This document shows, piece after piece, positions 6,018 to 37,652 of a stretch of DNA of 64,000 bases (position 1 is its first letter; every line of letters begins with the position of its first letter). The notes under the pieces were generated by a model. The model worked only from the letters and a program-made list of their open reading frames with translations. It searched no databases and was not told where the DNA came from. Both the position numbers and the translations under genes were made by a program. Source of the stretch: Spirochaetota bacterium (lineage in GTDB: Bacteria; Spirochaetota; UBA4802; UBA5550); assembly GCA_963663865.1 (NCBI GenBank), contig OY760686.1, forward strand, positions 1,664,001 through 1,728,000, written 5' to 3'.

Positions 6018-6094
6018 CAATCGGTTCCGGCAAAGCACTGTCAGTAATCAAATAATGATTGACCTCAGTAATTCTGCTGTCATGATGTGACTGT

Positions 6095-6168
6095 TCAACA
6101 GGGGTGCCCTACGGGGCTGAGATTATACCCTTAGAACCTGATCCGGGTAATGCCGGCGAAGGGAGTTC
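6095..6168 (+). ncRNA. TPP riboswitch
   Basis: GGGGTGC...GCTGAGA...ACCCTTAGAACCTGATCCGGGTAATGCCGGCGAAGGGA matches the THI-box consensus and lies upstream of thiamine genes. Confidence 0.93.
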
Positions 6169-6238
6169 GGATATCCTTAATACATTCCCCATTCTCTCCA
6201 ACCAGCATTGCCTCCGGAATTACAAGGAGGAATAGTCC

Positions 6239-20213: not shown

Positions 20214-20375
20214 ATGCTGTGAGTAGAGATTTCTTTCCTAAACGACCTGATACAAGCCCTAAAATCCAGACATTGTCTGGAAAATCGAGTTGGAGCCATA
20301 ACATGTATAAAAAAACCCTGTTTTCTATACATGTTTTCGTTGATAAGTATATAATATGCCTGTTTTCTATATACG

Positions 20376-21461
20376 ATGAGGACGCATATGTCCTATAAAA
20401 TACCCTCTCTTCCTCATTCTGGCGATATCGAAACGGTTTCAGTGCTGAAAAAAGCAGCTTCAGCACATCGTTATCTGGCAGAACTAAAAGGCCTCTCCCG
20501 CAGTATTCCAAATCAGGGAATTTTGATTAATACCCTGTCGCTCCAGGAGGCAAAAGACAGCTCTGCCATTGAAAATATTATAACTACCCATGATGAACTT
20601 TACAGGGAAGAGCTTTTTCCTGAATACGCTGTCAATGCCTCCGCCAAGGAGGTCAGAAATTATGTAAGTGCGCTGAAAACAGGTTTTGAACTGGTTAAAA
20701 AAGATAACCTGTTTACAAATAATCACATTCTCATTATTCAGTCAGAGCTTGAAAAAAACAGGGCAGGTTTTCGGAAACTTCCAGGGACAGAATTGAAAAA
20801 TGAACAGACAGGCCAAATCGTTTACACGCCGCCCCAGATAGCTGATGAAATTATTAAGCTCATGGGCAACCTTGAACAATTTATTAATGATGATTCTCTG
20901 AGTTCTCTTGACCCGCTTATAAAAATGGCGCTTATACATCACCAGTTTGAAAGCATCCATCCGTTTTATGACGCGAACGGGCGCACAGGGAGGATTATTA
21001 ATGTTTTGTATCTTGTGTTGAAAGGTCTCCTTGATATACCGGTGTTATATCTGAGCCGTTATCTGGTTCATAATAAATCTGCATATTATAATAATCTACA
21101 AAGAGTACGCGATACGGGCGACTGGGAATCATGGATTATGTATATGCTTGATGGGGTGGAAACAACTTCGCGCAAGACTATTTATATGGTAGAGCAGATT
21201 GGTATAGCCCTCAGTCAGTATAAACATGGAATCAGAGGGTCATGTAAATTCTATAGTCAGGATCTTATTAACAATCTGTTTTTTCACCCGTACACAAAAA
21301 TTGAATTTCTGCAAAAAGCTCTCAAAATATCAAGGCTGACTGCGGCTAAGTATCTTGAAATCCTTGTATCAGAGGGGTATCTTCAAAAAGAAAAAATCGG
21401 TAAATCAAATTATTATATCAACAAAGCATTGTTTGAAATACTGACAAAAGGGAATATATAA
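20376..21461 (+). CDS. Fic family AMPylase (N-terminal inhibitory motif, C-terminal HTH)
   Basis: HPFYDANGRTGR Fic motif and SSAIEN inhibitory motif. Confidence 0.9.
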   Translation: MRTHMSYKIPSLPHSGDIETVSVLKKAASAHRYLAELKGLSRSIPNQGILINTLSLQEAKDSSAIENIITTHDELYREELFPEYAVNASAKEVRNYVSALKTGFELVKKDNLFTNNHILIIQSELEKNRAGFRKLPGTELKNEQTGQIVYTPPQIADEIIKLMGNLEQFINDDSLSSLDPLIKMALIHHQFESIHPFYDANGRTGRIINVLYLVLKGLLDIPVLYLSRYLVHNKSAYYNNLQRVRDTGDWESWIMYMLDGVETTSRKTIYMVEQIGIALSQYKHGIRGSCKFYSQDLINNLFFHPYTKIEFLQKALKISRLTAAKYLEILVSEGYLQKEKIGKSNYYINKALFEILTKGNI

Positions 21462-23971
21462 TGAGTAGAGATTTCTTTCCGCAAAGGCCCGCGGCAAATC
21501 CAAAAATCTATGCCTATGAAGATACCAATCCGCAATACACCGGTCTTCTCAAGGTAGGTTATACTACTATCGATGTTCAGGCCCGCGTTAAACAGCAGTA
21601 TCCCACTCTACGTCCCGGCGACCTGCCGTACAAAATCGTGCTTGAAATATCCGCAATGCGGAATGACGGAACTGTATTCAACGATCATGATGTTCATCGG
21701 TTTTTAAGGAAAAAAGGTATTAGAAATCCTGAAGGTGAATGGTTCAAGTGTTCAGTCGATGATGTTATTGCGGCGATTATTTCAATAAAAACCGGAATGA
21801 TAATTGAAGATAATCGTACTCTGGATTTCAAAATGCGCCCTGAACAGGCTGCGGCCGTGGAAAAAGCGGCATTATATTTCAAGAGTTTCAGAAAAGAAAA
21901 TCCTGAAAAAACACCTCACTTCCTGTGGAATGCTAAAATGCGCTTTGGTAAAACCTTTGCAGCATATCAACTCGCAAGAAGAATGAAATGGAAAAGACTG
22001 CTGGTTTTGACTTTTAAACCCGCGGTGCAAAACGCCTGGGAAGAAGATATTAAGAGTCATATTGATTTTAAAGGGTGGCAGTTCATTTCCCGTAATGGAA
22101 TGAGCTATGAAGAAATTGATAAAACCAGGCCCTATGTCTGTTTCGGTTCATTTCAGGATTATCTTGGGAGAAACAATGCCGGCGGAATAAAAGCAAAGAA
22201 TGAATGGGTACACACGACAAAGTGGGATTGTGTAGTCCTTGATGAATATCACTATGGAGCCTGGAGAGAAAACGCCAGAGATTTATTTGAGGCCGAAGAA
22301 AACAGAGAAGAAAAATTCGGCAAAGGAGAAGGAATAGAATTATTTGATGAAGCAATTATGCCTATTACAACAGGTGCATATCTATATCTTTCGGGTACCC
22401 CTTTTAGAGCAATAACTTCAGGTGAATTTATTGAAGAACAAATATATAACTGGACCTACTCTGATGAACAGAGGGCAAAAGAGGAATGGGTTGGTAATGA
22501 CAATCCCTATGTTTCATTGCCGAGAATGGTTATGATGACATATCAGCTTCCTGATTCTATTCGGGAAATAGCGATGAAGGGGGAGTATGATGAATTTGAT
22601 TTGAATACTTTTTTTTCTGCTGAAGGTCAGGGGGATGATGCGAAATTTCTATTCAAGGACGAAGTCCAGAAGTGGCTTGATTTGATCAGAGGTTCATTTC
22701 TTGAAACATCAGTCGATAATCTTAAACTGGGAGCAAAAAAGCCACCACTTCCATTTTCAGATACGCGTCTGTTGAATGTTTTGTCACACACATTCTGGTT
22801 TTTACCGAGCGTACCTTCCTGCCATGCCATGAAGAATTTGCTGTCAGAGAAACAGAACAGCTTTTATCATGATTATAAAGTGATTGTAGCCGCCGGTCCC
22901 GGTGCGGGTATAGGCGTAAATGCCTTACCGCCGGTATTAGACCAGATGGAAAATCCGCTGGAATCAAAATCAGTTACTCTTTCCTGCGGAAAGCTGACTA
23001 CTGGCATTTCTGTTAAACCCTGGACAGGAATCTTCATGCTTCGAAATACTTCAAGCCCGGAAACATATTTTCAAGCCGCATTTCGTGTGCAGACTCCATG
23101 GACTGTCAAAAACCCGGACAGCATATCGCCGAACAAAGAAGAAATAATCAAAAAAGAATGCTATGTTTTTGATTTCGCGCCCGACAGGGCATTAAGACAG
23201 ATTGCAGAATACAGCTGTCGTCTTAACGTGGATGAGTCAAACCCTGAGAATAAAGTTAAGGAGTTTATCAGCTTTCTCCCTGTGTTGGCCTACGATGGCA
23301 GTTCTATGAAAAGAATTGACGCGGCTGGTATTTTAGACATGGCCATGAGCGGTACAACAGCGACATTGCTCGCAAGACGATGGGAAAGCGCGTTGCTGGT
23401 AAATGTGGACAATGATACACTTCAACGTCTTATGAAGAATGAAGCAGCAATGAAAGCCTTGATGAATATTGAAGGGTTTAGGAACCTCAATCAGGATATT
23501 GAAACAATAATCAATAAATCTGAATCGATCAAAAAGATAAAAAATACTGCGAATGAAAGGGATTTATCTGATAAAGAAAAGAAACATCTCAGCGATGAGG
23601 AAAGGGAGTATAAAAATTTAAGGAAGCAGATCCAGGAGAAGCTTATTAAATTCGCAACCCGGATTCCAGTTTTTATGTATCTGACTGATTATCGTGAACA
23701 GACTCTAAAGGATGTTATAACACAGCTTGAGCCGGGACTTTTTAAAAAAGTAACCGGAATTACCGTCAAAGATTTTGAATTGCTAGTAAGTCTTGGAGTT
23801 TTCAACAGCGCCTTGATGAACGATGCTGTTTATAAATTCAAAAGATATGAGGATTCAAGTCTGTCTTACACCGGCATTAATAAACATGAGGATGAAAATA
23901 TTGGTCTTTATGATACTGTAATTAGTCCAATTGAATTTATTTCGGCTTATGGGAAAGTTGCGGATAGTTAA
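21461..23971 (+). CDS. GIY-YIG/T5orf172-like nuclease fused to an SF2 helicase (restriction-type subunit)
   Basis: N-terminal IYAY..KVGYT..RVKQQ..EWF; Walker A MRFGKT, Walker B DEYH, SGTP and YFQAAFRVQ. Confidence 0.8.
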   Translation: MSRDFFPQRPAANPKIYAYEDTNPQYTGLLKVGYTTIDVQARVKQQYPTLRPGDLPYKIVLEISAMRNDGTVFNDHDVHRFLRKKGIRNPEGEWFKCSVDDVIAAIISIKTGMIIEDNRTLDFKMRPEQAAAVEKAALYFKSFRKENPEKTPHFLWNAKMRFGKTFAAYQLARRMKWKRLLVLTFKPAVQNAWEEDIKSHIDFKGWQFISRNGMSYEEIDKTRPYVCFGSFQDYLGRNNAGGIKAKNEWVHTTKWDCVVLDEYHYGAWRENARDLFEAEENREEKFGKGEGIELFDEAIMPITTGAYLYLSGTPFRAITSGEFIEEQIYNWTYSDEQRAKEEWVGNDNPYVSLPRMVMMTYQLPDSIREIAMKGEYDEFDLNTFFSAEGQGDDAKFLFKDEVQKWLDLIRGSFLETSVDNLKLGAKKPPLPFSDTRLLNVLSHTFWFLPSVPSCHAMKNLLSEKQNSFYHDYKVIVAAGPGAGIGVNALPPVLDQMENPLESKSVTLSCGKLTTGISVKPWTGIFMLRNTSSPETYFQAAFRVQTPWTVKNPDSISPNKEEIIKKECYVFDFAPDRALRQIAEYSCRLNVDESNPENKVKEFISFLPVLAYDGSSMKRIDAAGILDMAMSGTTATLLARRWESALLVNVDNDTLQRLMKNEAAMKALMNIEGFRNLNQDIETIINKSESIKKIKNTANERDLSDKEKKHLSDEEREYKNLRKQIQEKLIKFATRIPVFMYLTDYREQTLKDVITQLEPGLFKKVTGITVKDFELLVSLGVFNSALMNDAVYKFKRYEDSSLSYTGINKHEDENIGLYDTVISPIEFISAYGKVADS

Positions 23972-24188
23972 ACATTTTCTGAATTACTTGCAAGTTTAAT
24001 TGACTGGTAAGGGGGGGGCTGGGTTTTTCCGGCGGTTCGCATAACAGGGAGAAACCTGTACCCTGCTTGAGTTATAGGCAATATCGCGCCAGGGCAGAAA
24101 GAAAAAGATAGATTGATAATGCGGAAGATATTAAAATCCCCACGCCCCAGGAAGCCCGGCGTTCATGCCGGGCTGAAGAGAAGGAAAA

Positions 24189-24436
24189 ATGTATTATAAA
24201 TGGCAAAGACAAAAGCAGCACCGAAAAAAAGGTTCGGAGAAAACGTCGGAGAAAACGTCGGAGAAAATCATCAAAGCGATTCTTTTAGACCCTCAGATCA
24301 CAATAGCCGAACTTGCCAATATAACCGGCGTTACCACCCGTTCAGTTGAAAGAAATATTGGTTCGCTCAGGAAAGCAGGGCGGTTAACGCGGAATGGACC
24401 GATAAGGGCGGACACTGGGAGGTAATAGTTGATTAA
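24189..24436 (+). pseudogene. Frameshifted winged-HTH C-terminal fragment
   Basis: SEKT tandem repeats then ITIAELA...RSVERNI; the expected ending GPDKGGHWEV is shifted by one base (GGACC GAT AAG GGC GGA CAC TGG GAG GTA). Confidence 0.6.
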
Positions 24437-24700
24437 ATTAACTGAAGAAAAACTTGAACAGGCCAGGACCAGATGGCAATGCTTTTCGGAAATTCCGAAT
24501 AACCACTCTATGAGTCTAACCCGTATAATACGGACAGAGGGTTAAGCCGAAAATATTAATATTGAGGTTTAATATGGTTCCGCTTAGCTTCACCCAGATT
24601 ATGTTTCACTGCGTTTCGCAGTTACTTCATATAGCCGTGAAATGTCAGATGAAGCAACATAGTCACCATCAGCTTCATCCCGCGCATAAGGAGGTCAGCC

Positions 24701-25525
24701 ATGAAGATAAAAAAAGCGAATGTTGCCGGAATGTTCTATCCTGCCGATCCTGATGAGCTTCGTCTGATAATACGCAGATTTCATGCGGCAGTTGAACTCC
24801 CGTTATTCCAGGGGCACATCCTCGGGATAATTTCACCTCATGCCGGATACATATATTCCGGGCAGGTTGCCGCGTACGGCTACAGGGCGCTTGAAAAAGA
24901 ACTGCCCGAAACGGTGATAATCCTGGCGCCTTCGCACAGGGCCAGGTTTGGGGGAGCGGCCCTGATCAGCGAGGGGAGCTATGAGACACCGCTCGGTATC
25001 GTGGAAATTGATGATGTCATCGGCAAGAGGCTGGCGTCCGAGAGGTTTTTTACTGATATTCCGGAGGTGTTTAATATGGAACACTCACTTGAGGTGCAGA
25101 TACCTTTCATTCAGTACAGCTTTCCGGAGTGCAGAATAGTACCTGTTATAATCGGGACCACTGATATCGATATCTGCTCTGCGATTGGAAACGCGGTCCA
25201 TGAAGCTTCTGCCTCGGTGAAAGGACATACGGCGATAGTCATGTCTACAGATCTGTCCCATTATCATGGGTATGATACAGCCGTAAGCATGGACCAGAGG
25301 GCGATCAGGGCCATTGAGCGCTGTGACCCGGAGTTTCTGCAAAACACCCTGGCTTCGGGAGCAGCTGAGGCGTGCGGCGAGGGGCCCCTTGCTGCCGGTT
25401 TAAGCGCCTGCAGTAAATCGGGCAACACGGAAGTCCATGTCCTGAAATACGCCAATTCGGGAGATACTGCAGGCGACAGGTCGCAGGTTGTCGGATACGT
25501 TTCAGCCGTTGTGACGGGAGAGTGA
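24701..25525 (+). CDS. amrB: AmmeMemoRadiSam system protein B (MEMO1 family)
   Basis: VAGMFYP, PHAGYIYSG, EHSLEVQIPF, STDLSHY, ACG, NSGD and VVGY motifs. Confidence 0.9.
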   Translation: MKIKKANVAGMFYPADPDELRLIIRRFHAAVELPLFQGHILGIISPHAGYIYSGQVAAYGYRALEKELPETVIILAPSHRARFGGAALISEGSYETPLGIVEIDDVIGKRLASERFFTDIPEVFNMEHSLEVQIPFIQYSFPECRIVPVIIGTTDIDICSAIGNAVHEASASVKGHTAIVMSTDLSHYHGYDTAVSMDQRAIRAIERCDPEFLQNTLASGAAEACGEGPLAAGLSACSKSGNTEVHVLKYANSGDTAGDRSQVVGYVSAVVTGE

Positions 25526-26040
25526 GGAGCAGGGTTTTTTGGGGCAGGGAGCCTGCCATCCATCTTCACGCTGAGAGCGTGGACATTTTTCTGTGCGGAG
25601 CGCACGGGCATTTCTTTCGCCACTTTTTTGTCGCGCCACAAAAAATTCATCTGTTTTCTATAGCAGGGAGCCTGCCGGCTGTTTTTCACGCTGAGAGCGT
25701 GAGACCTTTTTCTTCGCCCCTTTCGTCCGGGTTTTTTGCCGTAGGCTTTAACTCGCTCAGCTTCGCGACTCGCATTTTTGGCAGGGAGCCTGCCGTTCTT
25801 TTTCACACTGGGAGTGTGAGACCCTTTTCTTCGTCACTTTCGTCCGGGCGAAAGTGACCAAAGCCCGCGCCTCAGGCGCCGGCGGGGCTTAGCTATTGTG
25901 GGTACAAGGCTATTTCAACGCCGGTATCATCATCCTGATGAACCGGCGCCCGGGCGATTTGCGTCCATGCAAATCGTACTGGTTGGGTTGTTGAAGTAGT
26001 GTGTCTGAAACCCCTTCAATCCGCTATAATGTTTGAAGCG
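25526..26040. repeat. Modular palindromic repeat, copy R1
   Basis: Three (G)GCAGGGAGCCTGCC...CACRCTGRGAGYGTG units (25543, 25663, 25780), GGCTTTAACTCGCTCAGC, and a ~170 bp block (25861-26032) shared with R2 and R3. Confidence 0.9.
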
Positions 26041-26045
26041 TGCCT

Positions 26046-26531
26046 TTATTTTGCTGTGCTGTGCGACGAACCAATACCAGTGATAAGCTCATTGATTTTT
26101 ATCCTGAGCTCAGTTATCTGATGCAGCGACAGCCCTGTTCCGCAGATAAGCTTTTCAGGTATCGCGGCAGCCTGTTGCTTCAGTTCGGCGCCTTTCGCAG
26201 TCAGGCTGACTATGACCCGTCTTTCGTCTGCGGTGTCCCGTCTGCGTTCGATAAGTCCCGATGATTCGAGCTTTTTCAGCAGCGGGGTGAGCGTTCCGGA
26301 GTCGAGGATTAGCCTTTCCCCGATTTCGCTTACACTGAGGCTGCTGCTCTCCCATAGCACAAGCATGGTTATATACTGAGGATAGGTGAGGCCCAATTCG
26401 TTGAGCAGGGGCCTGTACCTGGCAGTGATGATCCTCGATGCCGCGTAAAGTGAGAAGCATAGCTGATTGTCAAGCTTCAGCGCATCATCGCTGCGCAGGT
26501 CTTTATTTTCCAAGCAGTTTTCTGATGTCAT
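26046..26531 (-). CDS. ohrR: OhrR-type MarR regulator
   Basis: LKLDNQLCFSLY (redox Cys), LTYPQY, LDSGTLTPLLKKLE and DERRV motifs. Confidence 0.88.
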   Translation of the reverse strand: MTSENCLENKDLRSDDALKLDNQLCFSLYAASRIITARYRPLLNELGLTYPQYITMLVLWESSSLSVSEIGERLILDSGTLTPLLKKLESSGLIERRRDTADERRVIVSLTAKGAELKQQAAAIPEKLICGTGLSLHQITELRIKINELITGIGSSHSTAK

Positions 26532-26991
26532 TTTCAATCCTTTCCGGTCTTGTTGACGGAGCATATCTTTTGATGACATTACCGTCTCTATCAACCAGGA
26601 ATTTTGTGAAGTTCCACTTGATTCTCTTTGCGAGAAAGCCGCGTGCGTTATTCTTTAAGTAAACGTAGAGAGGGTGTGTTTCCTTTCCGTTTACGTTTAT
26701 CTTGCTGAAGAGCGGGAAGCTCACATTGTAATTCAATTGGCAGAAAGATTTAATATCTTCCTCTGTGCCGGGTTCCTGTTTTAGAAAGTCATTTGAAGGA
26801 GAACCAAGTACCTTGAACCCATCCTCTGCATATTTTCTGTGAAGAGCTTCAAGACCCTCGTATTGTGGTGTTAAGCCGCATTTGCTTGCCGTATTTACGA
26901 TCAGGAGGACATCACCACGGAACTGTTCCATCTGAATCAGGTTTCCGTCAATTGTCCTTATGTTTATCCTGTAAAAATTGTCTTTGTTCAT
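26503..26991 (-). CDS. Glutathione peroxidase (Cys-type)
   Basis: NTASKCGLTPQY, QEPG and IKWNFTKFLVD motifs; the catalytic codon is TGC. Confidence 0.92.
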   Translation of the reverse strand: MNKDNFYRINIRTIDGNLIQMEQFRGDVLLIVNTASKCGLTPQYEGLEALHRKYAEDGFKVLGSPSNDFLKQEPGTEEDIKSFCQLNYNVSFPLFSKINVNGKETHPLYVYLKNNARGFLAKRIKWNFTKFLVDRDGNVIKRYAPSTRPERIENDIRKLLGK

Positions 26992-27008
26992 AAAAGCCTC
27001 GTGTAAAA

Positions 27009-27050
27009 TTATATTGAGTACAATATAAATATCCATTCCATCCTCGTCAA
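27009..27050 (-). promoter_or_regulatory. Sigma70-type promoter of gpx-ohrR with an overlapping palindromic operator
   Basis: Minus strand TTGACG-17nt-TATATT; perfect inverted repeat TTATATTG-agta-CAATATAA (27009-27028) overlaps the -10 box. Confidence 0.6.
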
Positions 27051-27150
27051 TATAAAATATCTTAAATGTTAAATTAATCAGTTATTGCAGTTGACAAAAG
27101 ATGGCATAAGGTAATAAAAAGTAGCGAAATGTAACAAGAGAGAGGCAGGC

Positions 27151-27606
27151 ATGACACTTTTAACAGTTGATGCGGTTGCAGAAATTCTTTCGGTCCATAC
27201 GCGGACTGTCAGACGGTATATCAAGGAAAAAAGGCTGTCGGCGCAGAAGGTCGGCGGTCAGTGGAGGGTGACTCCGGATTCCCTGAAGCTGTTTATGGGC
27301 ATTGACAGCTTTGAGGAGATAGCAAACAGAAATCATTCTGAAGAAAGAAATATTAAGTTCAGTCATGATTTCAGCTCTGTGGAGAGAATAACGGTTTCTG
27401 CAGTTGTTGATGTTCTGGTCAGATCAAGGGATGAAGCTGACAGAATCTCCGCTACAGTACTGGCTGCAATTCAGTGCAGAGAGGGCTCCGGCGGAGCAAG
27501 ATGCGACTGCATATTTCATGAGTATGAGGGAAAACTCAGATTTATGCTCTGGGGTACTCCTGATTTTATCAGCAGAATGATGCAGAGCCTTGAAGTAATA
27601 GTGTAA
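27151..27606 (+). CDS. Excisionase-like (HTH_17) DNA-binding protein
   Basis: LLTVDAVAEILSVHTRTVRRYIKEKRLSAQKVGGQWRV. Confidence 0.8.
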   Translation: MTLLTVDAVAEILSVHTRTVRRYIKEKRLSAQKVGGQWRVTPDSLKLFMGIDSFEEIANRNHSEERNIKFSHDFSSVERITVSAVVDVLVRSRDEADRISATVLAAIQCREGSGGARCDCIFHEYEGKLRFMLWGTPDFISRMMQSLEVIV

Positions 27607-27608
27607 AA

Positions 27609-28484
27609 GTGAAATTAGTATACAGAGGAAGGTGTATGAAAACTGGTCCATTTTTTAGAAGTGAAATGTACAAAAATGCAATATTTGAACGCTATGATTC
27701 GGTTCTTGCCGGTTGGATTAAGGCGGAGCGGATGAATGTATCAACACGTTTCGGTAATACGCATGTTATAGCCTCCGGCACCAGAGATAAAACGCCCCTT
27801 GTCCTGCTGCACGGTTCGGCATCAAATTCATCAGTGTGGACTGGAGAACTGAAAGCGCTTGAAGCTGATTTCACGGTGTACGCGATCGACATACCGGGGG
27901 AAGCCGGAAGGAGTGAAGAAGTCAGGCCGGCTTTGAATGATGACAGCTTTATCGAGTGGATGGAAGATGTCTATAAAGGACTGGAGATTAAAAATGCCGT
28001 AGTTTGCGGAGTTTCTCTCGGGGGCTGGATTGCCGTTAAATGGGCTTCCAGTCACAGTGAGTGTGTATCAGGTCTTGTCCTTGTTTCAACGGGCGGTGTT
28101 GTTAATCCTAAAGGGTTATTTCTTCTGAAAGCGGTATTCCATGCTTTAAGAGGACGGAAGGGGGCCGACGGATTTATGAAAATGCTTTTTGGAAAAATGG
28201 AAATTGATGAAGAAGTCCGTGATTACTTCAGGCTCATGGCGGAGGGGTTTTCTCCGAGGACCGGTTCAATCCCTCTTTTCAGTAATGAATTACTGGCCCG
28301 GCTGAATATGCCGGTCCTGTATATTGGAGGCGCGGATGATGAATTCTACGACAGCAGGAAGGCGGCTTCCCGCCTGACAGAAATTGTTTCACATGCACAG
28401 ACAATAATACTGGAAAATACAGGACATGTCGTAACAGGGATTGGTGAGATGATTAAGGACTTTGACCGGGGTGTGTTGCAGTAG
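27609..28484 (+). CDS. Alpha/beta hydrolase
   Basis: LLHGS, DIPG..G.S, nucleophile elbow GVSLGG and C-terminal TGH. Confidence 0.88.
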   Translation: MKLVYRGRCMKTGPFFRSEMYKNAIFERYDSVLAGWIKAERMNVSTRFGNTHVIASGTRDKTPLVLLHGSASNSSVWTGELKALEADFTVYAIDIPGEAGRSEEVRPALNDDSFIEWMEDVYKGLEIKNAVVCGVSLGGWIAVKWASSHSECVSGLVLVSTGGVVNPKGLFLLKAVFHALRGRKGADGFMKMLFGKMEIDEEVRDYFRLMAEGFSPRTGSIPLFSNELLARLNMPVLYIGGADDEFYDSRKAASRLTEIVSHAQTIILENTGHVVTGIGEMIKDFDRGVLQ

Positions 28485-29225
28485 GGTTTAACTCGCTCAG
28501 CTGCGCTGTGCGACTTGCATTTTGGCAGGGTGCCTGCCTGTCATTTTTCACACTGGGAGTGTGAGACCTTTTTCTTCGTCACTTTCGTCCGGGGTGTGTT
28601 GCCGTGGGCTTTAACTCGCTCAGCTGTGCGACACGCTTTTCTTCTGGCAGGGAGCCTGCCGTCAATTTTCACGCTGAGAACGTGGTACATCTTTTGCCGC
28701 TTTTTGACCGGCCAAAAAGCGGCGGTAAAAAGCCGTTCCTCAGGCGCCGGAAGGGCTTGACTTTTTACTGTTACCAAACTATTGCAGCGCCGTTATCATC
28801 ATCCTGATGAAACGGCACCCAGGCGATTTGCGTCCATGCAAATCGCACTGGTTGCATTGTTGAAGCAGTGTGCCTGCAGTTTTTTAATTCCGCCATTATG
28901 TTACAGCCAGCCATAGGACATCCATGTCCTGAGAATTAGTTACTGTGAAATATTCCGAGGAGTGACAGCTTTATTATGTCAGGCTCCTTCGGAGCCGGAA
29001 GGCGCAGCGTCCTGCTGCGCTTGAGTGATTATGCATTTTGGACATATTACGTTATCATATTGATTTAACAGGCATTAGGTTTTGGCACCCGGTAGAGCCG
29101 CCCAATTTGGGCGGCTCTACCTCATCGTGACACAGTCCCCCGGGGGTGGCAAGAGGAGGAGAGCCGAAGGACGTAACTTGCCGGCAGAGGCAGGGTCGCT
29201 TCGCACAAAAAAACGGAGTAGAATA
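28459..29225. repeat. Modular palindromic repeat, copy R2
   Basis: Two tandem ~122 bp units, a block shared with R1 and R3 (28730-28902), a block shared with R4 (28912-29026), and a GTAG palindrome at 29091-29121. Confidence 0.9.
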
Positions 29226-29340
29226 TGTTCAAAGGGGAAGACCTCAGCACGAAACTTTTTTATAAAAGAAAATTGGTGAAGAAAAAGTCTTGAATATTAT
29301 ACTGATAATGGAAAAGCTATTTAAGAATATGGAGAATTTG

Positions 29341-29583
29341 ATGCCAACTATATTTGAGTGGAATGGATACAGGTTTTTTTTCTTTTCAAATGAGGGAACT
29401 CCTCTTGAACCGGCTCATGTACATGTCAGAAATGGTTCGAATATTGCGAAATTCTGGCTGATTCCTGAAGTTAAAGTTGCAAAATCATGGGGACTCACTT
29501 CCAGAGAATTAAATACGCTTGAATTAATTGTAGAAGAAAATAAAAATTTGATTATGGAGAAATGGAATGAATTCTTCAATTGA
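29341..29583 (+). CDS. DUF4160 family protein (putative toxin-antitoxin component)
   Basis: MPTIF...GYRFFFFSNE...HVHV...AKFWL...WNEFF. Confidence 0.85.
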   Translation: MPTIFEWNGYRFFFFSNEGTPLEPAHVHVRNGSNIAKFWLIPEVKVAKSWGLTSRELNTLELIVEENKNLIMEKWNEFFN

Positions 29584-29821
29584 AGACGTAAGAGCTCACA
29601 GGGTTTGGTTCGATAATGATAATATCTGGATATTGTTTACGGATGGACGTCAACTTGCTGTGCCTTACGCATATTTCCCTCGTCTGCAAAAAGCTACGCC
29701 TGATCAAAGAGAAAAGTTTCAAATGAGTGGCGGAGGCCTCGGGCTTCATTGGGAGGAGTTGGATGAGGATATCAGTGTTCCTCATTTGCTTCTTGGTTCA
29801 TCAATGAAAATTGCTGTATAA
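29567..29821 (+). CDS. DUF2442 family protein (putative toxin-antitoxin partner)
   Basis: F.DGRQLAVP..YFPRL..AT..QR and GLHWEELDEDISV; overlaps the DUF4160 gene. Confidence 0.85.
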   Translation: MNSSIEDVRAHRVWFDNDNIWILFTDGRQLAVPYAYFPRLQKATPDQREKFQMSGGGLGLHWEELDEDISVPHLLLGSSMKIAV

Positions 29822-29825
29822 ATAT

Positions 29826-30545
29826 TTTGGGCAGGGAGCCTGCCGTCTTTTTTCACGCTGGGAGCGTGAGACCTTTTTCTTCGCCACTTATGTCCGGGCG
29901 GAAGTGGTCGACGGCTTTTTCTACCTCCTGTAGGCCGTCGACACTTAAGCATCCAGCTTTTCGGCCAATATCTTTTAGGCGCCGGAAAGGCTGAATTGCC
30001 GCAGGCTTTAACTCGCTCAGCTGCGCGACACGCTTTTCTCCTGGCAGGGGGCCTGCCGGCCATTTTCACGTTGAGAGCGTGGTACCTCTTTTGCCGCTTT
30101 TTGACCGGACAAAAAGCGGTGGGAAAAAGCCGTTCCTCAGGCGCCGGAAGGGCTTGGCTGTAGCTGTTACCAAACTATTCCAACGCCGTTATCATCATCC
30201 TGATGAAACGACGCCCGGGCGATTTGCATCCATGCAAATCGCACTGGTTGAGGTGTTGAAGCAGGGGGCCTGCAGTCTTTTAATTCCGCCATTATGTTCC
30301 TGGCAGCCGATGGCATTTTCGCCGTCCTGGCGGCCATCGGCACTAAAACATCCTGTTTGTCGGACTCCTCGCAGTCGGCCGCGGGGAAAAGCGCTGCGTT
30401 TGTTTGAGCACCAGGTAGAGCCGCCCAATTTGGGCGGCTCTACCTCACCGTGACACGCAGCGCCCCACATCTGACAAGATGAGGAGGGAAGCCGATTTTT
30501 CGCGGCTTGTGCGTAGTTACAGGCACAAAAAAGAGTGTAGATTTA
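29826..30545. repeat. Modular palindromic repeat, copy R3
   Basis: Units at 29830 and 30043; 30005-30298 is near-identical to 28606-28902; GTAG palindrome at 30414-30444. Confidence 0.9.
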
Positions 30546-30639
30546 TAATAAAATTATATAATAGTAGCAAATTCCAATGAGGCTGTTATATAGAGTCTAA
30601 TAGGTCTTGTGTTAAATATAAAGATTGAGGAGTATTCTT

Positions 30640-32197
30640 ATGAAATGGTCTCATCGGGTCTCATCGGGTCTCATCGGGTCTCATTGTATTGGTTTTGTTT
30701 TCTGTTATTGGTTTGTTTTCATGTAGTAATGGAGATGTCGATTTAAAGAATGAACATACAGATGTTACTGCACTTTTAACTGAAAAAGAGATAAAGGCAT
30801 TAAGCCTTCTTCAGGAAACACATTCTGTATCGGATGAGGCTGCGATGTCTGAGGTCGAAAGTGTTATGGAGTTGCTCAACAACGATGACATTAAACGCAG
30901 CGGAGAGATTAAGGACCGCAGGCTAAGCTCGGTCAAGAAAGAATACGTAAAGCCTTCAAAGAATTTTATTTCCAGAGAATTAGTATTAAAAAAAATGCGG
31001 GAATATAAAAATAATAGACTGCATTATCGGTCAAACGAAGAATCTGAAATAGACGAATCTGAGAAGGAGAACACGGAAGCAGAAGATGTACCGCTTTATG
31101 TTTTTAATTTTTCTGACTCTGAAGGCGTGGATGCCGGCTTTGCTATTGTAAGCGGAGATGACCGTACAGACAGTGTTCTTGCTGTTGTTTCTGACGGCAG
31201 ATTGAACTCTGAGAATGATAATCCAGGACTTGCCGTATTCGTGACCCGTATTCCGGATTATATAGACAGTAAAATAGAAGAATACAACAGCATTGATGTA
31301 GCTGATCTGGAATCTGCTCTTGAAAAAATAGAAGACAGTGCCGGCAGTAATTATTCAGAATCGGATTTACCGGAAGCTCTTTCTGGAGAGATTATCACCC
31401 GGGGTAGTTCGACAACAACAACATTTTATGGTGCGTAGACAAAAAATACAGTATACGGCCCGCTTATGGCAACCAAGTGGCATCAATTTTCACCTTATAA
31501 TAATCTGATTGGATATAATACGATTTGTTCAAACAATCCGAATGGGAAACCGGTGGCCGGTTGTGTGGCAATAGCGATTGGTCAGGTTATGGCATATCAC
31601 AAATACCCGGCTGCCTTTGGAGGCGTAACTTATAACTGGTCAAAAATGATAAACCCGTCTGATTCAGCATCAAGGAACATGGCAGCTTCTTTGATTGCAT
31701 CAATAGGCAGGCTTGTTGATATGGACTATGGATGTGATGGCAGCGAGGCATACAGTTCTGAGACAGACGACTGCTTTGACGATATGGGATACAGTACTCC
31801 AAGTAAGTATCAGGATTACAACCTTAATAAAGTGATATCATCTATAGCCAATAGAAAACCGGTTTGTACAGATGGTTATGCTATAAAGGTTAAAGAAAAG
31901 GTATTAGGTTTTACATATAACACATATTACAAAAAAGGACATGCGTGGGTAATTGATGGTTATACGAAGAGGAGCCGTCCAGTAACTCGTTATGTGAGAA
32001 CGTCAACAAAAACTACGAAGACAACTTCGACACAAACAGAGGAATATGTAAACTGCAACTGGGGATGGGGCGCAACCGATAACGGATGGTATCTGAATAA
32101 AGTCTTTGATACTAACAAGAGCGATATTACACTTAAATCTGGAACAGAAAGATATTACCAGTATAAACTTAAAATTCTACCTGATGTTTCGAAATAG
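30640..32197 (+). pseudogene. C10 (streptopain/SpeB) family cysteine peptidase lipoprotein, interrupted
   Basis: Propeptide GFAIVSGDDRT; catalytic AGCVAIAIGQ, GHAWVIDGY and NWGWG; the ATG at 30640 is out of frame because of a 10-bp tandem repeat; in-frame TAG at 31436-31438. Confidence 0.8.
30647..30684 (+). repeat. 10-bp tandem repeat (GGTCTCATCG x3.8) in the signal-peptide region
   Basis: ggtctcatcg ggtctcatcg ggtctcatcg ggtctcat. Confidence 0.95.
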
Positions 32198-32203
32198 AAG
32201 GGG

Positions 32204-32959
32204 ATGGAAACAATGATGAAAAATATATTTAAAACTGTTATATTGTTAGTGTCACTTCTGTTCTCTGGATGTCATGAAGATGAAAATTGGAGTCCTGAGC
32301 CTTTATCAGATTATTTTGTCTGGGAATACACAACAGTAAGGTATATCAATCCGATTGTAATGCTTTATTATGAAGACGAAGAAAGCCATAGTATTTCAGA
32401 TTTTGAGATTGGATTGATGGACTGGCTCTCATACCATAATGATGATTATAATTCAGGCTATTTTTATCGGGACTCACTCAATTATCCTGAGGAACAACGT
32501 GAGAGATTTCTTGAACTGGCTTCAAAAATTAGTGATGGAAGCTTTGGCGGCAAATCATCTAATACTTTTGGTTTTTGCTGTCCTGATGTATCTGTAAGTT
32601 CAATTAACATAAATACAATTGAAGACTACGCCGAAACGCATAAAAGCGGTTCATCTCTAAACGATATAGTTCAAATTGGTTATTTTTGTGCCGACGAGTA
32701 TGTAGATAATGGTTTTAATTTTGATGGAGGCGACCAGATACAGTATTCGTATTCATATGTGTTTGCTCAGAAGGAAGCTCTAATCAGCTTTAATGGTAGT
32801 AAACATACAATTATTGGTTTAGATACAATTAATCTTCAATTAACTATTCCTCCGTCGGACGATGGTGAATACAGTTTTGAGATTGAGTACTGTCAGTCTG
32901 ATGGAACATCATTTAAAGGAACTGTTGGTCCTGTGAATATTAAAGGAAGTTCAAGATAG
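32204..32959 (+). CDS. Hypothetical lipoprotein
   Basis: MKNIFKTVILLVSLLFSGC lipobox; starts 6 nt after the peptidase stop. Confidence 0.65.
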   Translation: METMMKNIFKTVILLVSLLFSGCHEDENWSPEPLSDYFVWEYTTVRYINPIVMLYYEDEESHSISDFEIGLMDWLSYHNDDYNSGYFYRDSLNYPEEQRERFLELASKISDGSFGGKSSNTFGFCCPDVSVSSININTIEDYAETHKSGSSLNDIVQIGYFCADEYVDNGFNFDGGDQIQYSYSYVFAQKEALISFNGSKHTIIGLDTINLQLTIPPSDDGEYSFEIEYCQSDGTSFKGTVGPVNIKGSSR

Positions 32960-33117
32960 AAGTAGTAGGCAGGGAGAGCTTGAGTGCATCATTCAGTGAA
33001 TAACACTTCAAGCTTCCCTGTTTTTTTGGTTTTGCACGATTAACTCTAATCATTCATGCGAATAACAGGCATTTTCTGGTTGAGCTGGATATTATTTTCA
33101 ATCATTAAGTGAATTGG

Positions 33118-33415
33118 TGGTGCGGAGCGCACGGGCTTTTCTTTCGCCACTGTGATGTGCGACACGCTTTTCTTTTAGGCAGAGAGCCTGCCGTCTATTT
33201 TTCACGCTGAGAGCGTGAGACCCTTTTTGGTTACTTTCTTTTTTCGATCCAAAAAAGAAAGTGACCAAAGAAAAAGGGATCTCCTGCGCGGAGGGCGATG
33301 GGACATCCATGTCCAAAGAATTTGTCACTGTGGAATAGTATATGGAGAGATTGCTTTATTTAGTCAGGCTCCTACGGAGCCGGAGAGCGCAGCGTCCTGC
33401 TGCGTTTGAGTTACT
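33118..33415. repeat. Modular palindromic repeat, copy R4
   Basis: GTGCGGAGCGCACGGGC..TTCTTTCGCCACT shared with 25593; unit at 33178; GGTTACTTTCTT..AAGAAAGTGACC hairpin; 33298-33411 shared with 28912-29026. Confidence 0.85.
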
Positions 33416-33424
33416 AAATCTTTT

Positions 33425-36400
33425 ATTGTATTATGTTAAAACCGTAACCAATGCTTTGGGCCATACAGCTGAATTTGCATACGATGCAGGATTAGGAGTG
33501 TTACTCGAGCAGAAAGACCCGAATGATCTTAAAACAAGATACAGTTATAACGGTAAGGGTTTACTGGACGTTATTTCTATAAGAGGTCCTGAGGATAATG
33601 ACTTTCTGCAGCACCGTAGAATTTCCTACAATGACCTTGATTTGCCCGATAAACAACACGTTGAAATACAGGAGCTTGTAGATAGAGATGGGAACTGGAG
33701 AACTACAAAGCAGTATTTTGACGGGCTGGGCCGTACTTACAGGGAAGTTGCAGACGGTAACTATGATTCAAACAATGAGAATGTAGAGAATTATTATTTA
33801 ACCGTTTACAGCTTTGATGATGTTAACCGCGTCAGCGGTAAATCCAATCCGGTTCCTGTGGATGGAAACGGAAACATGCTGATTCAGCCTTCTTATACTC
33901 AATATGCTTATGATTTTGCAGGGCGCCCAATTACTGTCACTAACCCTGACGGGACGGTTTCATCCTACAGCTATAACAGCAGCATTACTGCTGAAAAAGC
34001 TGTTCAAAGTGTTACTGTAACCGATCCGGAGGGGAACTACAAAACCAAGGAGTATGACTCAAAAGGACGCATTGTGAAAGTAAATGATGCGGGCATCGCT
34101 TCAGTTAAATATAACTATGAAGAAGATGCCTTCAGAGTGAGCATAACGGATGCTGACGGACTGGTTTCAAAAATAATTTCTGATTCATTGGGACGGAAGG
34201 TCACTCTGGAAGATCCGAATTCGGGTCTGTGGAGTTATATCTATGACAAAAACGGAAATCTGAAAAAACAGACTGATCCCAAACAGGCAAGCATATCATT
34301 TGCCTACGATGCCTCGAACAGGGTTGTAAAAAAAGACCTTCCGGACAGTGATACCGATGTTGTATATACCTATGACGGTACAGAGGATTCAGCAAAATCG
34401 CATGTTATCGGTCAGCTTACAGGAGTAACCGATGCATCAGGAACAGTGAGCAGTTACTATGACCAGTATGGAAACAGAAAGGCATGGATCAGGACTGTTG
34501 ACGCAGGTAAAGATGACGCCATGAGCTTTTCTTTTTCAGCAGAGTACGACATACGGAATCAACTGAAAACACTCGACTACCCTGATGGTTCGCAGATACG
34601 TAACTATTATTCACCGGCAGGGTTTCTGAGAATGGTGAGACTGATGCGTACGGACAGGGGTACGATTGACAAGCCGGTTTCTGAAGATGATCAGATTGTG
34701 AATGGTAATTTTGGAGCGTAGCTTGTAACATATTTCGGACCTGCAGTTAATAACGGACAGTACGAATTTGTTAGACGTACCGGAAACAATATAAGAACAA
34801 CGGTGTCTGTTGATCCTGAAAATATGCGTGCCGGTCAGATTACGAGCAGAACAAATAACGGACTTGAAGGTTATAGTGAACTTGAGAACACAAGTTATGA
34901 ATATGACAGCGTAGGCAACATAACCTCAATCACTGACAATATTACAGACGACGGTCTGAATGAATCACAGAGCTTTACCTACGATAAACTTTACAGGCTT
35001 AAAACTGCAACAGCATCTTCGCTCTACGGAAGCCTCGAATATGCATTCACAGCCGGAGGAAGGCTGACTAAAAAGGGTAACATATCTCTTGGCTATTCGG
35101 ACACGGCCCATCCTCAGGCGGTAACATCAGCCACTGAAGACGGTGCAACCGTAAACTACGCCTACGATCTGAACGGAAACATGACATCACGAGCGGGGCG
35201 GACCCTCGACTATGACAGTGAAAACAGGCTTACATCAGTCAGTGACGGAGATACTTTAAAACAGAGCTATGTGTATGATGAAAGCGGCAGCCGCATCAAG
35301 AAGGTGAGGGAAGATGGAACGGTTGTCTACTCGATTGACGGGCTGTACGAGGTAGTACGCAATGCCGATGGACTGCTTGAGCATACCAAATATGTACACG
35401 GCATAAAGGGTGAAATGGTTGCCCAGATAACCAAAAACGGGCTGGATATTCGAAGCCTTGCCGCAAACCTCGAACTTCACAGAAAAATGGTGCTTGCCGA
35501 ATCGTACAGTATCGGCGGCGGAAGAGGACTTTACGGAACGATTCTGAGCGCCTGGAAGTCGGCATATTATAAAACAGACTTCTTCCTTGCACGTTATGAA
35601 AATGCAAAAATCTTCTACGTATTCTATTTCTTATTACAGTTTTGGTAATAATTGCCGGTTATGTTTACAGTCAACTGGGCGGCAAATACGAAGGTCACAT
35701 CCTTCAAAATATGCCGGCGTTGAGGCATCTGACGCCTATTGTGTTAATTGCCTTTGTAGCGGTTTTCGGATTTAACGGCTGCTCTTCAGACACAGGCGGC
35801 GATGACCCGAGTTTCCTCGATGACCCGGTACCCATCGACGCGCCGGATACAGGCTCACTCAGCGGTACCTACAACGATGAAACACGGAACGGATTTCCAC
35901 TAGAGGGAACTTACTTCTATCATCCTAACCACCTTGGAAGCGCGTCGTACATAACCGACACAGCCGGAACAGTAATAACGCGATATTATTACAAACCCTA
36001 CGGAGAAATAATCCGTGACAAAAGCTCGGGCGCTGATATAGTCAGGCACAAATTCACGGGACAGGAGGAAGACGCCGAGACCGGACTCATGTACTACGGA
36101 GCGAGGTACTATGATCCGTACATCGGAAACTTTATAACACCGGATTCACTGATACCTGAACCTGAGTACTCACAATCCTTCAACAGGTACATGTACACTT
36201 ATGGCAATCCAGTGAGGTATAATGACCCGAGCGGGCATGCCGCAGAGGAAGCGGTTGCAGTAATGGGGTCGGATCAAGCCTATGATACAGTAACAGTAAT
36301 GGAAGCATGGGTAGGTAACGGCTATGGTACAGCTCAGGCAAGTACTGGTGCCTCGAATAACAATGAGAATAATAACGGGGAAAAAGGTGTAAGCACAGCT

Positions 36401-37132
36401 GCTTCAAAGAAAGGTGTTAACAGTATTTCAACAGTAAGTATTGGTGATAATGAAAGCGATGGAGGTGATTCTGGAAGATCAAAAAATGCCGGTATTAGTT
36501 CCGGGAAAGCTTCAGGCTCACCTCAGTCAGAAAGTTCAACGCATTACGACTCATCGTTCAGGGATATGCTGAGTTCTACAGCAAATGAGTTCGGCAGAGG
36601 CACCGGGATGTTGTTCAACTTCGATTTCGGATACGACTGGGCATCACAGGGGAAAGAAGCAATTGGTTCTGGACGATATGCTTTTGGAGCAGCAAGCTTT
36701 TTGGCTGCCGGAATAGAGGGGACAGTTGATTCCGCGGTGGCATATTTTCTCGGGAAAGCTATTTACGGCAGACTGAGATCGATAGGTGCTGGCGGAGTTA
36801 GTGTTGTAGGCGTTGATTTAGCAAATAGATTTGCGTTTGATCCAACACGTGTTAGGCTCCTAAAAACAGTAATAAATTCTGATGGCACAATTAGAACTTC
36901 TCAAACGGTTCTAAGACAATTATCAAGTACGAGAAGTTATATAACAACACAATCAATTCATGAAACAATTGGTTCTGGTGTAAGAATTGCAGATCCGCAA
37001 GGTGTAGCTGGGCAATTTCTGTACAAATCAAATGCAATTTTCAATGGATCAAGGGGAACTCTTGAAGTATTGATTCATGAACCTACAGGTGTTATTCGAC
37101 ATGTATTATTTAGAAGCGGTGGTGTGCAATGA
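33425..37132 (+). pseudogene. RHS/YD-repeat polymorphic toxin, 5'-truncated, with an amber stop and a frameshift; core and toxin tip intact
   Basis: YD repeats; in-frame TAG at 34719-34721; frameshift near 35615-35645; core HLGS, KFTGQEED, GLMYYGARYYDP, NRYMY and NPVRYNDPSG. Confidence 0.85.
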
Positions 37133-37425: not shown

Positions 37426-37476
37426 TAACAATTAACTCATTACCTTCATAATCAGGAAAGATGTCGCATCAACAAC

Positions 37477-37652
37477 AGGAAGACGCCGAGACCGGACTCA
37501 TGTACTACGGAGCGAGGTACTATGATCCGTACATCGGAAACTTTATAACACCGGATTCACTGATACCGGAACCTGAGTACTCTCAATCGTTTAACAGGTA
37601 CATGTAGACATACGGCAACCCTGTAAGGTACAATGACCCGACTGGGCATGCC
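37477..37652 (+). repeat. Orphan duplicate of the RHS core 3' end
   Basis: 176-bp direct repeat of 36066-36241, ending at DPTGHA, with an internal TAG at 37605. Confidence 0.9.

Follow-up and report, generated by a model that had tools for sequence, protein, structure and literature searches.

An order-wide hairpin element with conserved TCC/GGA loops in the composite intergenic repeats of a Spirochaetota bacterium

The window analysed here is a 64-kb stretch (positions 1,664,001-1,728,000) of the single 3.156-Mb contig, with 45.9% G+C, of a Spirochaetota bacterium (contig OY760686.1; the genome under study, referred to below as G000). Four of its intergenic regions are occupied by composite repeats built from recurring modules (Table 1), and some of these modules carry short hairpins whose loops read TCC on the plus strand and GGA on the minus strand. 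The preliminary description of this DNA had listed fourteen such hairpins and proposed that minus-strand transcripts titrate a CsrA-like protein or, alternatively, that the loops are strand-specific signals in DNA. One of the loop-bearing modules, H, has a long history in this bacterial order and occurs there in multiple copies. We tentatively read it as a hairpin element of the repetitive extragenic palindrome (REP) type that acts as DNA, and weigh against this reading a role as CsrA-binding RNA.

All fourteen hairpins were present, by eye and in scans, at the positions given before or at most 1 nt from them. Thirteen had the form C-A(N)GGAN-G on the minus strand and none had it on the plus strand; the remaining one, AAGC-ATCCA-GCTT at 29947, displays a UGGAU loop on the minus strand. 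As described earlier, the stems differ, and eight distinct stems occur within the window. A scan of the whole window for A(N)GGAN loops closed by a perfect stem of 4 bp or more gave 16 on the minus strand and one on the plus strand, and 13 of the 16 fell between 25927 and 33405. The enrichment was confirmed for the interval 25500-33450, where 13 minus-strand and 0 plus-strand hairpins were observed, albeit as copies that are not independent (three of module D and two of module E). The corresponding means over 500 dinucleotide-preserving shuffles were 0.22 (maximum 2) and 0.38 (maximum 4), and no shuffle got to 13.

BLAST with the four intergenic repeat regions returned 47 stretches of the genome (17 kb), which were merged to 42 intervals at 16 loci. 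Modules A, B, C, D, E, F and H were defined by hand, and the intervals were mapped with nhmmer models built from them. In the repeat 'plus' orientation the modules follow the grammar (B)A(BA)n, then optional H, then D, then E or H, then F, with more shared sequence beyond F. Thirty-nine composites contain at least one of D, E or H, the modules that carry the TCC/GGA loops; the composites are polar, and all copies within one are co-oriented. The whole genome holds 391 perfect A(N)GGAN hairpins (189 on the plus and 202 on the minus strand), of which 93 lie inside the 42 repeat intervals (42,625 bases including 300-nt flanks), compared with a background of 298 over the 6,227,550 strand-bases outside the repeats. 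The strand bias was complete: 93 of 93 repeat hairpins lay opposite to the repeat 'plus' orientation and 0 on the same strand. They comprise 30 distinct stem/loop sequences in about 13 stem classes (manual count), with the loops, in plus-strand spelling, ATCCT (37), ATCCAT (20), GTCCT (12), CTCCT (10) and others (14).

Table 1. Composite repeats and module copies in the window (window positions; hairpin sequences in plus-strand spelling).
Feature	Position	Strand	Description	Basis
Composite repeat 1	25539-26034	+	A-A-B-A-D; between a Memo-like gene (+) and a convergent MarR-family gene (-)	nhmmer map; Pfam
Composite repeat 2	28469-29133	+	B-A-B-A-D-E-F	nhmmer module map
Composite repeat 3	29826-30457	+	A-H-B-A-D-H-F	nhmmer module map
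Composite repeat 4	33174-33417	+	A-E; adjoins a 5'-truncated RHS-repeat open reading frame	nhmmer map
Module H copy	29905-29968		9-bp stem, T5 bulge, 4-bp stem with CTCCT loop, short hairpin with ATCCA loop (hairpins at 29921 and 29947)	Model R1, 83 bits
Module H copy	30304-30367		Different compensated stems; loops GTCCT and ATCCT (hairpins at 30320 and 30346)	Model R1, 82.8 bits
Module C+D copy	25854-26034		Hairpins TCATC-ATCCT-GATGA (25927-25941) and CGATTTGC-GTCCAT-GCAAATCG (25955-25976)	Scan
Module C+D copy	28721-28903		Hairpins at 28796-28810 and 28823-28846	Scan
Module C+D copy	30118-30300		Hairpins at 30192-30206 and 30219-30242	Scan
Module E copy	28909-29035		Hairpins AGGAC-ATCCAT-GTCCT (28915-28930) and GCGCAGC-GTCCT-GCTGCGC (29002-29020)	Scan
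Module E copy	33292-33417		Hairpins at 33301-33314 and 33388-33404	Scan
Three tandem A modules	25540-25860	+	Further A starts at 28524, 28645, 29830, 30043 and 33178	
Module C hairpin	25860-25893	-	G+C-rich stem, then U run; adjoins the two GGA hairpins of D on their 3' side; repeated at about 28727-28759 and 30124-30155, with U5 run	
Module F	29079-29133		Perfect 12-bp palindrome GTAGAGCCGCCC-AATT-GGGCGGCTCTAC; second copy at 30402-30456	

Module H comprises 64 nt. Its first hairpin has a 9-bp stem, then a T-rich bulge of 5 nt, then a 4-bp stem that ends in an N-TCC-T loop; an ACT linker connects this to a second hairpin, with an A-TCC-T loop on a stem of 3-4 bp, and a YGTCG tail follows. In a first alignment of 17 copies, 88.8% of the cells were paired, 12 of 17 pairs had changed on both sides, and the covariation score was 0.478, a value that none of 500 shuffles (0.162) attained. 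The covariance model R1, built from H after this alignment, then gave a cross-genus set of 67 matches (60 distinct) at 59 loci in at least 19 genomes. In the alignment of the 60 distinct copies, which was fitted to R1, 97.7% of the cells were paired and 15 of 17 pairs had changed on both sides; the score rose to 0.586 against 0.177 in shuffles, again reached by 0 of 500. Copies within one genome, and related genomes, are not independent.

The loops of H vary far less than its stems. Both loop-closing C-G pairs were invariant (60/60). Between them, loop 1 had any base, T (59/60), C (60/60), C (52/60, with G in 7) and T (60/60), and loop 2 had A (50/60), T (60/60), C (60/60), C (54/60, with G in 5) and T (60/60). 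On the opposite strand both loops read C-A-GGA-N-G. The linker positions A, C and T were conserved in 60, 55 and 57 of 60 copies, and the T-rich bulge and the YGTCG tail were conserved too. At the third base of TCC, substitutions other than the G of the 7 and 5 TCG copies (loops 1 and 2) were nearly absent; three G000 copies have ATCGT as their second loop.

Within the family, 60 of the 64 genomes, from 24 of 25 genera, had an R1 match at E ≤ 0.01; outside G000 the scores were as high as 72 bits. Across the order, 78 of 122 genomes had matches at E ≤ 1e-4 and all seven families were represented; without G000 the counts were 56/63 (family f1), 5/7 (f5), 2/2 (f4), 7/13 (f2), 3/11 (f7), 2/12 (f3) and 2/13 (f6). 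A phylum-wide sample gave matches at E ≤ 1e-6 in only 8 of 151 genomes, just two of them outside the order, so that the model is not promiscuous. H is present in 18-21 copies in G000 and in up to about 48 per genome elsewhere. It is mostly intergenic, only 2 of 58 loci lying inside a long open reading frame (ORF), and it breaks draft assemblies at contig ends. Four DNA contigs, apparently from the same strain as G000, also break at the repeats and so carry no information on strand or mobility. In other genera (loci L065, L070, L073, L075 and others), H is accompanied by different repeats, with a conserved CCTCACCCGC-type left flank and CCTCTCC...GGAGAGG hairpins on its right; the mosaic partners of H thus change between genera. 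Rfam 15 gave no match at E ≤ 5 over two H copies of the window and nothing at gathering level on 16 H loci from other genomes.

The remaining modules of the composites are lineage-specific. A BLAST search with 25780-26040 gave one faint match among 30 relatives, and exact patterns of these modules gave 0 matches in genome contigs and one chance coding match in metagenome contigs. Five of 63 family genomes contain a single copy of the 15-mer TCATCATCCTGATGA, in four cases in coding-like stretches and in one just past a gene end. Solitary F-type 12-bp palindromes (GTAGAGCCGCCC...GGGCGGCTCTAC) also occur in G000 away from other modules, at 653979, 654999, 679835, 2858739 and 3009816, and are often followed by one to three extra half-sites CGGCTCTAC.

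The way in which the stems of H pair bears on whether they are kept as RNA or as DNA. Of 1016 paired cells in the cross-genus set, 985 were Watson-Crick, 8 G.T, 6 A.C and 17 other; 99 loop-proximal stems of G000 had 584 Watson-Crick, 0 G.T, 2 A.C and 6 other cells. Selection on RNA structure alone normally leaves G.U pairs far better tolerated than A.C pairs. Here wobble pairs were as rare as any mismatch, with no strand asymmetry, which points to H stems being maintained at the DNA level, as a hairpin or cruciform, or on both strands at once. Smaller or noisier comparisons gave mixed counts: H in G000 alone, a small set, had 6 G.T and 0 A.C; the two alternative outer helices of D gave an equivocal 36 A.C cells (minus model) against 15 G.T (plus model); and a broad scan for imperfect hairpins returned 37 G.T, 15 A.C and 114 other cells, mostly noise on a G+T-rich strand. 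Both strands of 28722-29032 folded far better than shuffles (z -4.86 minus, -5.91 plus). Plus-sense folds were the more stable in 31 of 34 intervals, with 716 against 327 G.U pairs, counts that are uncorrected for the G+T-rich composition of that strand. UNCG tetraloops and GNRA loops were rejected as plus-strand markers, GGCTCC-TTC-GGAGCC being a triloop.

H also behaves as a unit that comes and goes within other repeats. In G000 it lies inside D in two copies (2311586 and 1976468) and is absent from the other D copies. A repeat of the relative G008 exists in three copies: two contain a 52-nt H-like unit with a pair of TCC-loop hairpins, and the third lacks it cleanly, with no duplication at the junctions. 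The only possible duplication at an H-in-D junction is an ambiguous 3-nt GGC. The complete genome of another relative, G011, contains sets of near-identical H copies, and there IS110-family genes lie 183-184 nt from two strong H copies in the same relative arrangement (3046511/3046757 and 4866436/4866620); weaker H-like matches lie 265 nt from two copies of another IS110 type (1956484/1956749 and 3561380/3561645). The G011 genome has 25 IS110-domain matches in all. Elements of the IS110 family have a habit of site-specific insertion next to hairpin repeats, and the adjacency fits such insertion, or could mean that a part of the insertion sequence resembles H. A D copy of G000 is split within its second hairpin by a group II intron reverse transcriptase/maturase gene (G000:C1:1038140-1039561, minus strand; L042:4141-5562). 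As targets of mobile genes in these two respects, the repeats resemble REPs. With respect to replication, the TCC strand of G000 is the leading strand in 37 of 39 oriented intervals and at 14 of 16 loci (origin at about 0.35 Mb, terminus at about 1.93 Mb), and the two exceptions showed no local skew inversion.

The loops of H, and those of D and E, also resemble binding sites of CsrA. As had been expected, G000 encodes both csrA and fliW, adjacent, intact and above the Pfam cut-offs. The 79-aa CsrA has as its closest solved relative 5dmb_D, the Geobacillus CsrA of the CsrA-FliW complex (E 1.2e-19), and its N-terminal and VHRKEIY segments align with solved CsrA proteins. Of five FlaB-size flagellin genes, four have in their leaders an A(N)GGAN-type hairpin 25-45 nt upstream of a GGAG-type Shine-Dalgarno (SD) sequence (CAGC-AAGGAU-GCUG, UGGC-AAGGAA-GCCA, GUCA-AGGA-UGAC and CCUGAU-AUGGAG-AUCAGG), so the presumed CsrA targets of this genome resemble the repeat hairpins on their GGA strand. 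The five flagellin paralogues and the fliW-csrA pair are consistent with a spirochaete. In the portion of PMC7652899 available to us, the consensus selected in vitro is RUACARGGAUGU, with GGA in hexaloops closed by C-G, mostly on short stems. The repeats display a 5-6-nt loop, an upstream A, a closing C-G pair and a short stem on the GGA strand only. There, A occupies the first loop position in 60 of 60 H copies for both loops, and U most often follows GGA (AGGAU 37 and AUGGAU 20 of the 93 loops). The loops are presented on short stems (4-5 bp), in paired hairpins.

Module D further resembles the RsmZ RNA, a resemblance of architecture and not homology. D aligns to the RsmZ model (RF00166) from end to end, and one of its hairpins is identical in every letter to the consensus UCAUCAGGAUGAUGA of the model. 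At E ≤ 10 the model gave 29 weak matches in G000, 22 of them D copies and all 22 on the GGA strand. The best score was 21.2 bits against a gathering score of 44, and the end of an unrelated coding sequence reached 19.1 bits.

Gene context, derived from crude longest-ORF calls, allows transcription through the repeats in either sense. In G000 the upstream gene was co-oriented with the composite (TCC sense) in 28 of 39 composites, and the downstream gene was convergent, reading in the GGA sense, in 20 of 39; 14 of 39 composites lay between convergent genes, as against 15.5% of all adjacent gene pairs. Module A is a pair of 6-bp hairpins; their triloops are GAG or GGG, and a T run comes after each hairpin on the plus strand. 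Of 30 terminator-like sites in 24000-34500, 27 were on that strand (shuffle mean 9.4). The A modules thus look like terminators for the upstream gene. Module C appears terminator-like on the minus (GGA) strand, to judge from its sequence and from the terminator of the RsmZ-model alignment. The arrangement is consistent with two back-to-back convergent terminators (A plus, C minus), with D, E and H on the minus-sense side. Where a convergent gene adjoins a composite, nothing terminator-like was seen by eye between its stop codon and D; the MarR-family gene, for example, ends 12 nt from D, and its mRNA should therefore cross the GGA hairpins as far as C. No promoter-like site was found at a fixed place across the 39 composites. 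The sole recurrent one, a weak ATGATA/ATTACG-N16-18-CATAAT/TATAAT, lies inside E in four composites.

Taking these results together, we lean, tentatively and well short of conviction, towards H as a REP-like DNA hairpin element whose loops would serve a putative DNA enzyme, CsrA binding being a by-product or a later exaptation. H would be maintained and spread as a DNA hairpin, presumably by way of single-stranded DNA or a cruciform, and only copies with perfectly pairing stems would propagate. The loops and their invariant C-G closing pairs would form the sequence-specific determinant for the putative hairpin-binding enzyme. In G000, H would have been joined with the lineage-specific modules A, B, C, D, E and F into polar composites. 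Transcription in the GGA sense would then display canonical CsrA-type sites as a likely consequence and possible exaptation, and not as the cause of stem conservation. The earlier alternative of a DNA-level signal is thus partly upheld, by the near-purely Watson-Crick stems and by the presence or absence of H without target duplication; the enzyme that would recognise the loops was not found.

Several observations weigh against a DNA element. No match to Y1_Tnp/RAYT (PF01797) was present in G000. R1 found no H within 1.5 kb of nine sampled Y1 loci of relatives, and H copy number did not track Y1 copy number in the family. No integron integrase exceeded the cut-off (best TIGR02249 match 114 bits vs 265), and none lay near a repeat cluster. 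H in G011 had no replication-strand bias (10 vs 7), which gives no support to lagging-strand single-stranded DNA transposition. The cases of presence and absence could be deletions rather than insertions. If the loops served an unrelated DNA enzyme, their agreement with the CsrA consensus in five separate features would be an improbable coincidence. Moreover, in other genera the gene to the left of the TCC-sense H points away from it, co-directional with GGA, at 38 of 58 loci and towards it at 20. The start of that gene is at most 210 nt from H at 31 of 38 loci and at most 67 nt at 10, mostly 43-180 nt, so that H often lies where a 5' leader would be, in the GGA sense. This bias is modest and fits a role as RNA. 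In tandem contexts the GGA sense was co-directional at 22 loci versus 11 for the TCC sense, and the right-hand gene had no orientation bias (27 vs 29). Y1_Tnp (IS200/RAYT-like) matches occur in 59 of 63 other family genomes, with 1-13 in each, mostly partial matches of about 50 bits and about 200 aa.

By analogy, the element would work most like REPs and bacterial interspersed mosaic elements (BIMEs) or like Neisseria-type mosaic repeats. Among described classes the CGTC-tagged REPs, compared here from their text description, may be the closest. According to PMC3733652, these REPs occur in Spirochaetes and lack a dedicated transposase; their stems measure 8-9 bp, their loops 4-5 nt, and the tag can also read TGTC. 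With them and with REP/BIME as described there, H shares its nature as a short, multi-copy intergenic palindrome with 4-5-nt loops in clustered mosaics, and its enrichment between convergent and co-directional genes (PMC3733652). H also ends in YGTCG, starts with N-CGTC-G, has a 9-bp stem and 5-nt loops, and adjoins IS110-family genes. Unlike the CGTC-tagged REPs, as that text describes them, H has a starting CGTC that is largely paired, a stem without initial A-T pairs, and no CCA tail. A further difference from REPs is that H is a 64-nt unit of two hairpins, in which the T5 bulge is conserved and the TCC loops are invariant. The H copies of one genome carry different compensated stems and number tens, not hundreds; the hairpins are all co-oriented and not head-to-head dimers, and no RAYT is associated with them.

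The pneumococcal BOX elements and the Neisseria intergenic mosaic elements are modular composites with variable box number that are structured and have no transposase of their own. The present repeats are modular composites as well, of different sequence and lineage, and we know of no such conserved loop motif in BOX or Neisseria elements. Three further candidates were rejected. A RAYT-linked GTAG-tagged REP, a palindrome of 20-40 nt with unpaired GTAG at one end, does not fit, as there is no GTAG tag (the flank after stem 1 is A-C-T, or AGT on the other strand) and no RAYT. A MITE (miniature inverted-repeat transposable element) was set aside given that the junctions of the 52-nt unit of G008 had no target-site duplication. 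An integron attC array was dismissed with no integrase above the cut-off and no GTTRRRY core sites, the latter sought by eye only.

Two facts remain in conflict: the loops fit CsrA and the flagellin leaders, whereas the stems are DNA-like and the unit mobile-like. In a broader form of the titration proposed earlier, the hairpins could instead be CsrA-binding RNA modules, in which GGA-sense hairpin pairs bind CsrA dimers, with DNA spread as the vehicle and binding as the selected payload. Such pairs could reside in a convergent gene's 3' untranslated region, a 5' leader, the intergenic part of an operon or a separate small transcript that ends at C. They would either titrate CsrA collectively or place neighbouring genes under CsrA control, with FliW also present. 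We consider this a real possibility, if an unlikely one, of which a dedicated sponge RNA with its own transcription makes up only a part. The motif fits in both the A and the closing C-G pair (60/60 each) and in the short paired stems, and the variable A-GGA or A-N-GGA spacing suits a protein better than base pairing. It is also favoured by the intact csrA-fliW pair and the similar hairpins in 4/5 flagellin leaders, by the genes that read into 20 composites in the GGA sense and the excess of convergent contexts, by the hairpin and U run of module C on the GGA strand, and by the GGA-sense left genes and short distances in other genera. The 22 D copies among the RsmZ-model matches point the same way, but the scores are sub-threshold and at noise level. 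Near-absent wobble pairs (8 G.T and 6 A.C of 1016) are unexpected under RNA-only selection, and about 10% of H copies carry TCG, which destroys GGA. In G000, most composites (28 of 39) are preceded by a gene that reads in the TCC sense. Across the order csrA is near-universal (113/122 genomes), so that a joint csrA-H profile is uninformative, yet H is rare in families f3 (csrA 12/12 vs H 2/12) and f6 (12/13 vs 2/13). Nine genes tested on the downstream side of H have no common function (CheW, an HTH-cupin regulator, a MoxR-type ATPase, an acyltransferase, a ZIP transporter, an IS110 transposase, a cyclase and two unknowns).

Comparison with known CsrA-binding RNAs leads to a similar balance. 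Like CsrB, RsmZ and RsmY, the repeats are arrays of short A(N)GGA-loop hairpins followed by a terminator-like hairpin on the same strand; unlike them, they are dispersed in about 39 composites and not gathered in one gene, their model score is sub-threshold, and FliW is present. The leaders of Bacillus subtilis hag and Campylobacter jejuni flaA have an upstream GGA hairpin and a GGA in the SD sequence, as do the flagellin leaders of this genome, and in other genera the distance from H to a start codon downstream of it in the GGA sense is often 43-180 nt. Unlike such leaders, H is repeated, stands beside unrelated genes and is further from the SD sequence than native sites. The available parts of PMC7652899 and PMC4894983 report that FliW presence is anti-correlated with the system that drives Csr small RNAs; FliW-bearing C. 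jejuni and Helicobacter pylori lack CsrB-type small RNAs, and the flaA leader itself can titrate CsrA (PMC4894983, in the part available). In the partial library that we searched, there was no report of CsrA-binding REP-like repeats and none of a CsrB-like RNA in FliW-bearing spirochaetes. Of the proposed titration by minus-strand transcripts, the selected, CsrA-like loop motif and the intact csrA-fliW pair stand; the idea of a dedicated sponge fares worse, given the noise-level RsmZ scores and the 28 composites downstream of a gene in the TCC sense.

A function as RNA of the opposite, TCC sense seems improbable to us. Here the UCC(N)U loops would pair with GGA in SD sequences or CsrA sites, or the hairpins would be terminators, insulators or mRNA stabilisers. 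Small RNAs with C-rich loops do pair with GGA-containing sequences, and the Bacillaceae-1 RNA family, to which we obtained a weak plus-strand match of 13.9 bits, has RUCCU loops. The co-orientation of composites with the upstream gene, the T runs of A with their plus-strand terminator-like sites, and the more stable plus-sense folds, subject to the caveat on composition given above, would agree with such a function. Nevertheless, D, E and H lie downstream of the A terminator-like hairpins, where plus transcripts should largely have stopped. The best anti-SD loop, CUCCU, is a minority (10 of 59 five-nt loops vs 37 AUCCU), the optional extra loop base is ill-suited to base pairing, the TCC sense is the less often co-directional one in tandem contexts of other genera, and the near-absence of wobble pairs counts against RNA here too. 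That the loops are under no selection, and TCC/GGA was only inherited from one ancestral hairpin copied many times, is very hard to credit: repeated copies of D and E do contribute to the fourteen hairpins of the window, but the cross-genus alignment contradicts it, with stems replaced repeatedly and loops and closing pairs fixed across genera, as do the many stem classes of one genome and the D module, which keeps TCC in 19 of 21 copies (alignment by eye) while neighbouring loop positions vary.

The genes that flank the composites in G000 are diverse. Housekeeping genes include those for a YchF-type GTPase, histidinol dehydrogenase, adenylate cyclase and a glycosyltransferase, and accessory or mobile genes include MarR, glutathione peroxidase, DUF4160/DUF2442, ParE, RHS fragments, IS110, an rve integrase and a group II intron reverse transcriptase. 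In the window, a streptopain-like C10 peptidase is encoded at 30689-32197 (+) by two same-frame ORFs, with Inhibitor_I69 (30689-31438) and Peptidase_C10 (31466-32197), separated by a stop codon at 31436-31438; three tandem 10-nt units lie at its 5' end (about 30650-30680). Three consecutive RHS/YD-repeat ORFs without the N-terminal part occupy 33342-37132 (+), the first starting directly after composite 4, and look like a truncated Rhs locus with orphan ends. A 181-nt direct repeat is found at 36061-36241 and 37472-37652. Just upstream of the repeat region, a low-G+C island (0.39-0.40) at 18068-23971 (+) contains a split Eco57I/MmeI-type methyltransferase, a Fic-domain protein and a T5orf172-ResIII protein, and is probably a defence island. 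The sole Rfam family at gathering level in the window was a thiamine pyrophosphate riboswitch at 6090-6181 (+), with 77.5 bits against a gathering score of 54.3.

The two sides of the evidence could also be reconciled. H may conceivably be a mobile DNA hairpin, spread through an order of flagellated, FliW-bearing bacteria, with a paired CsrA-hairpin payload that seeds CsrA-responsive sites by insertion before, after or between genes, which together would sum to a dispersed sponge; on balance we find this doubtful. If it were true, the seeded sites would provide an RNA-level partner to control by FliW. According to the part of PMC7652899 available to us, whether FliW and small RNAs act together in any species is undetermined, so that such a partner would bear on an open question. 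What can be said of H itself is that it is an order-wide structured element with strong covariation that is absent from Rfam 15. If its loops are CsrA sites, a mobile element would be rewiring a global post-transcriptional regulon. If they are instead the handle of a DNA enzyme, H would be a defined 64-nt substrate for tracing that enzyme, with known invariant bases and hundreds of natural variants.

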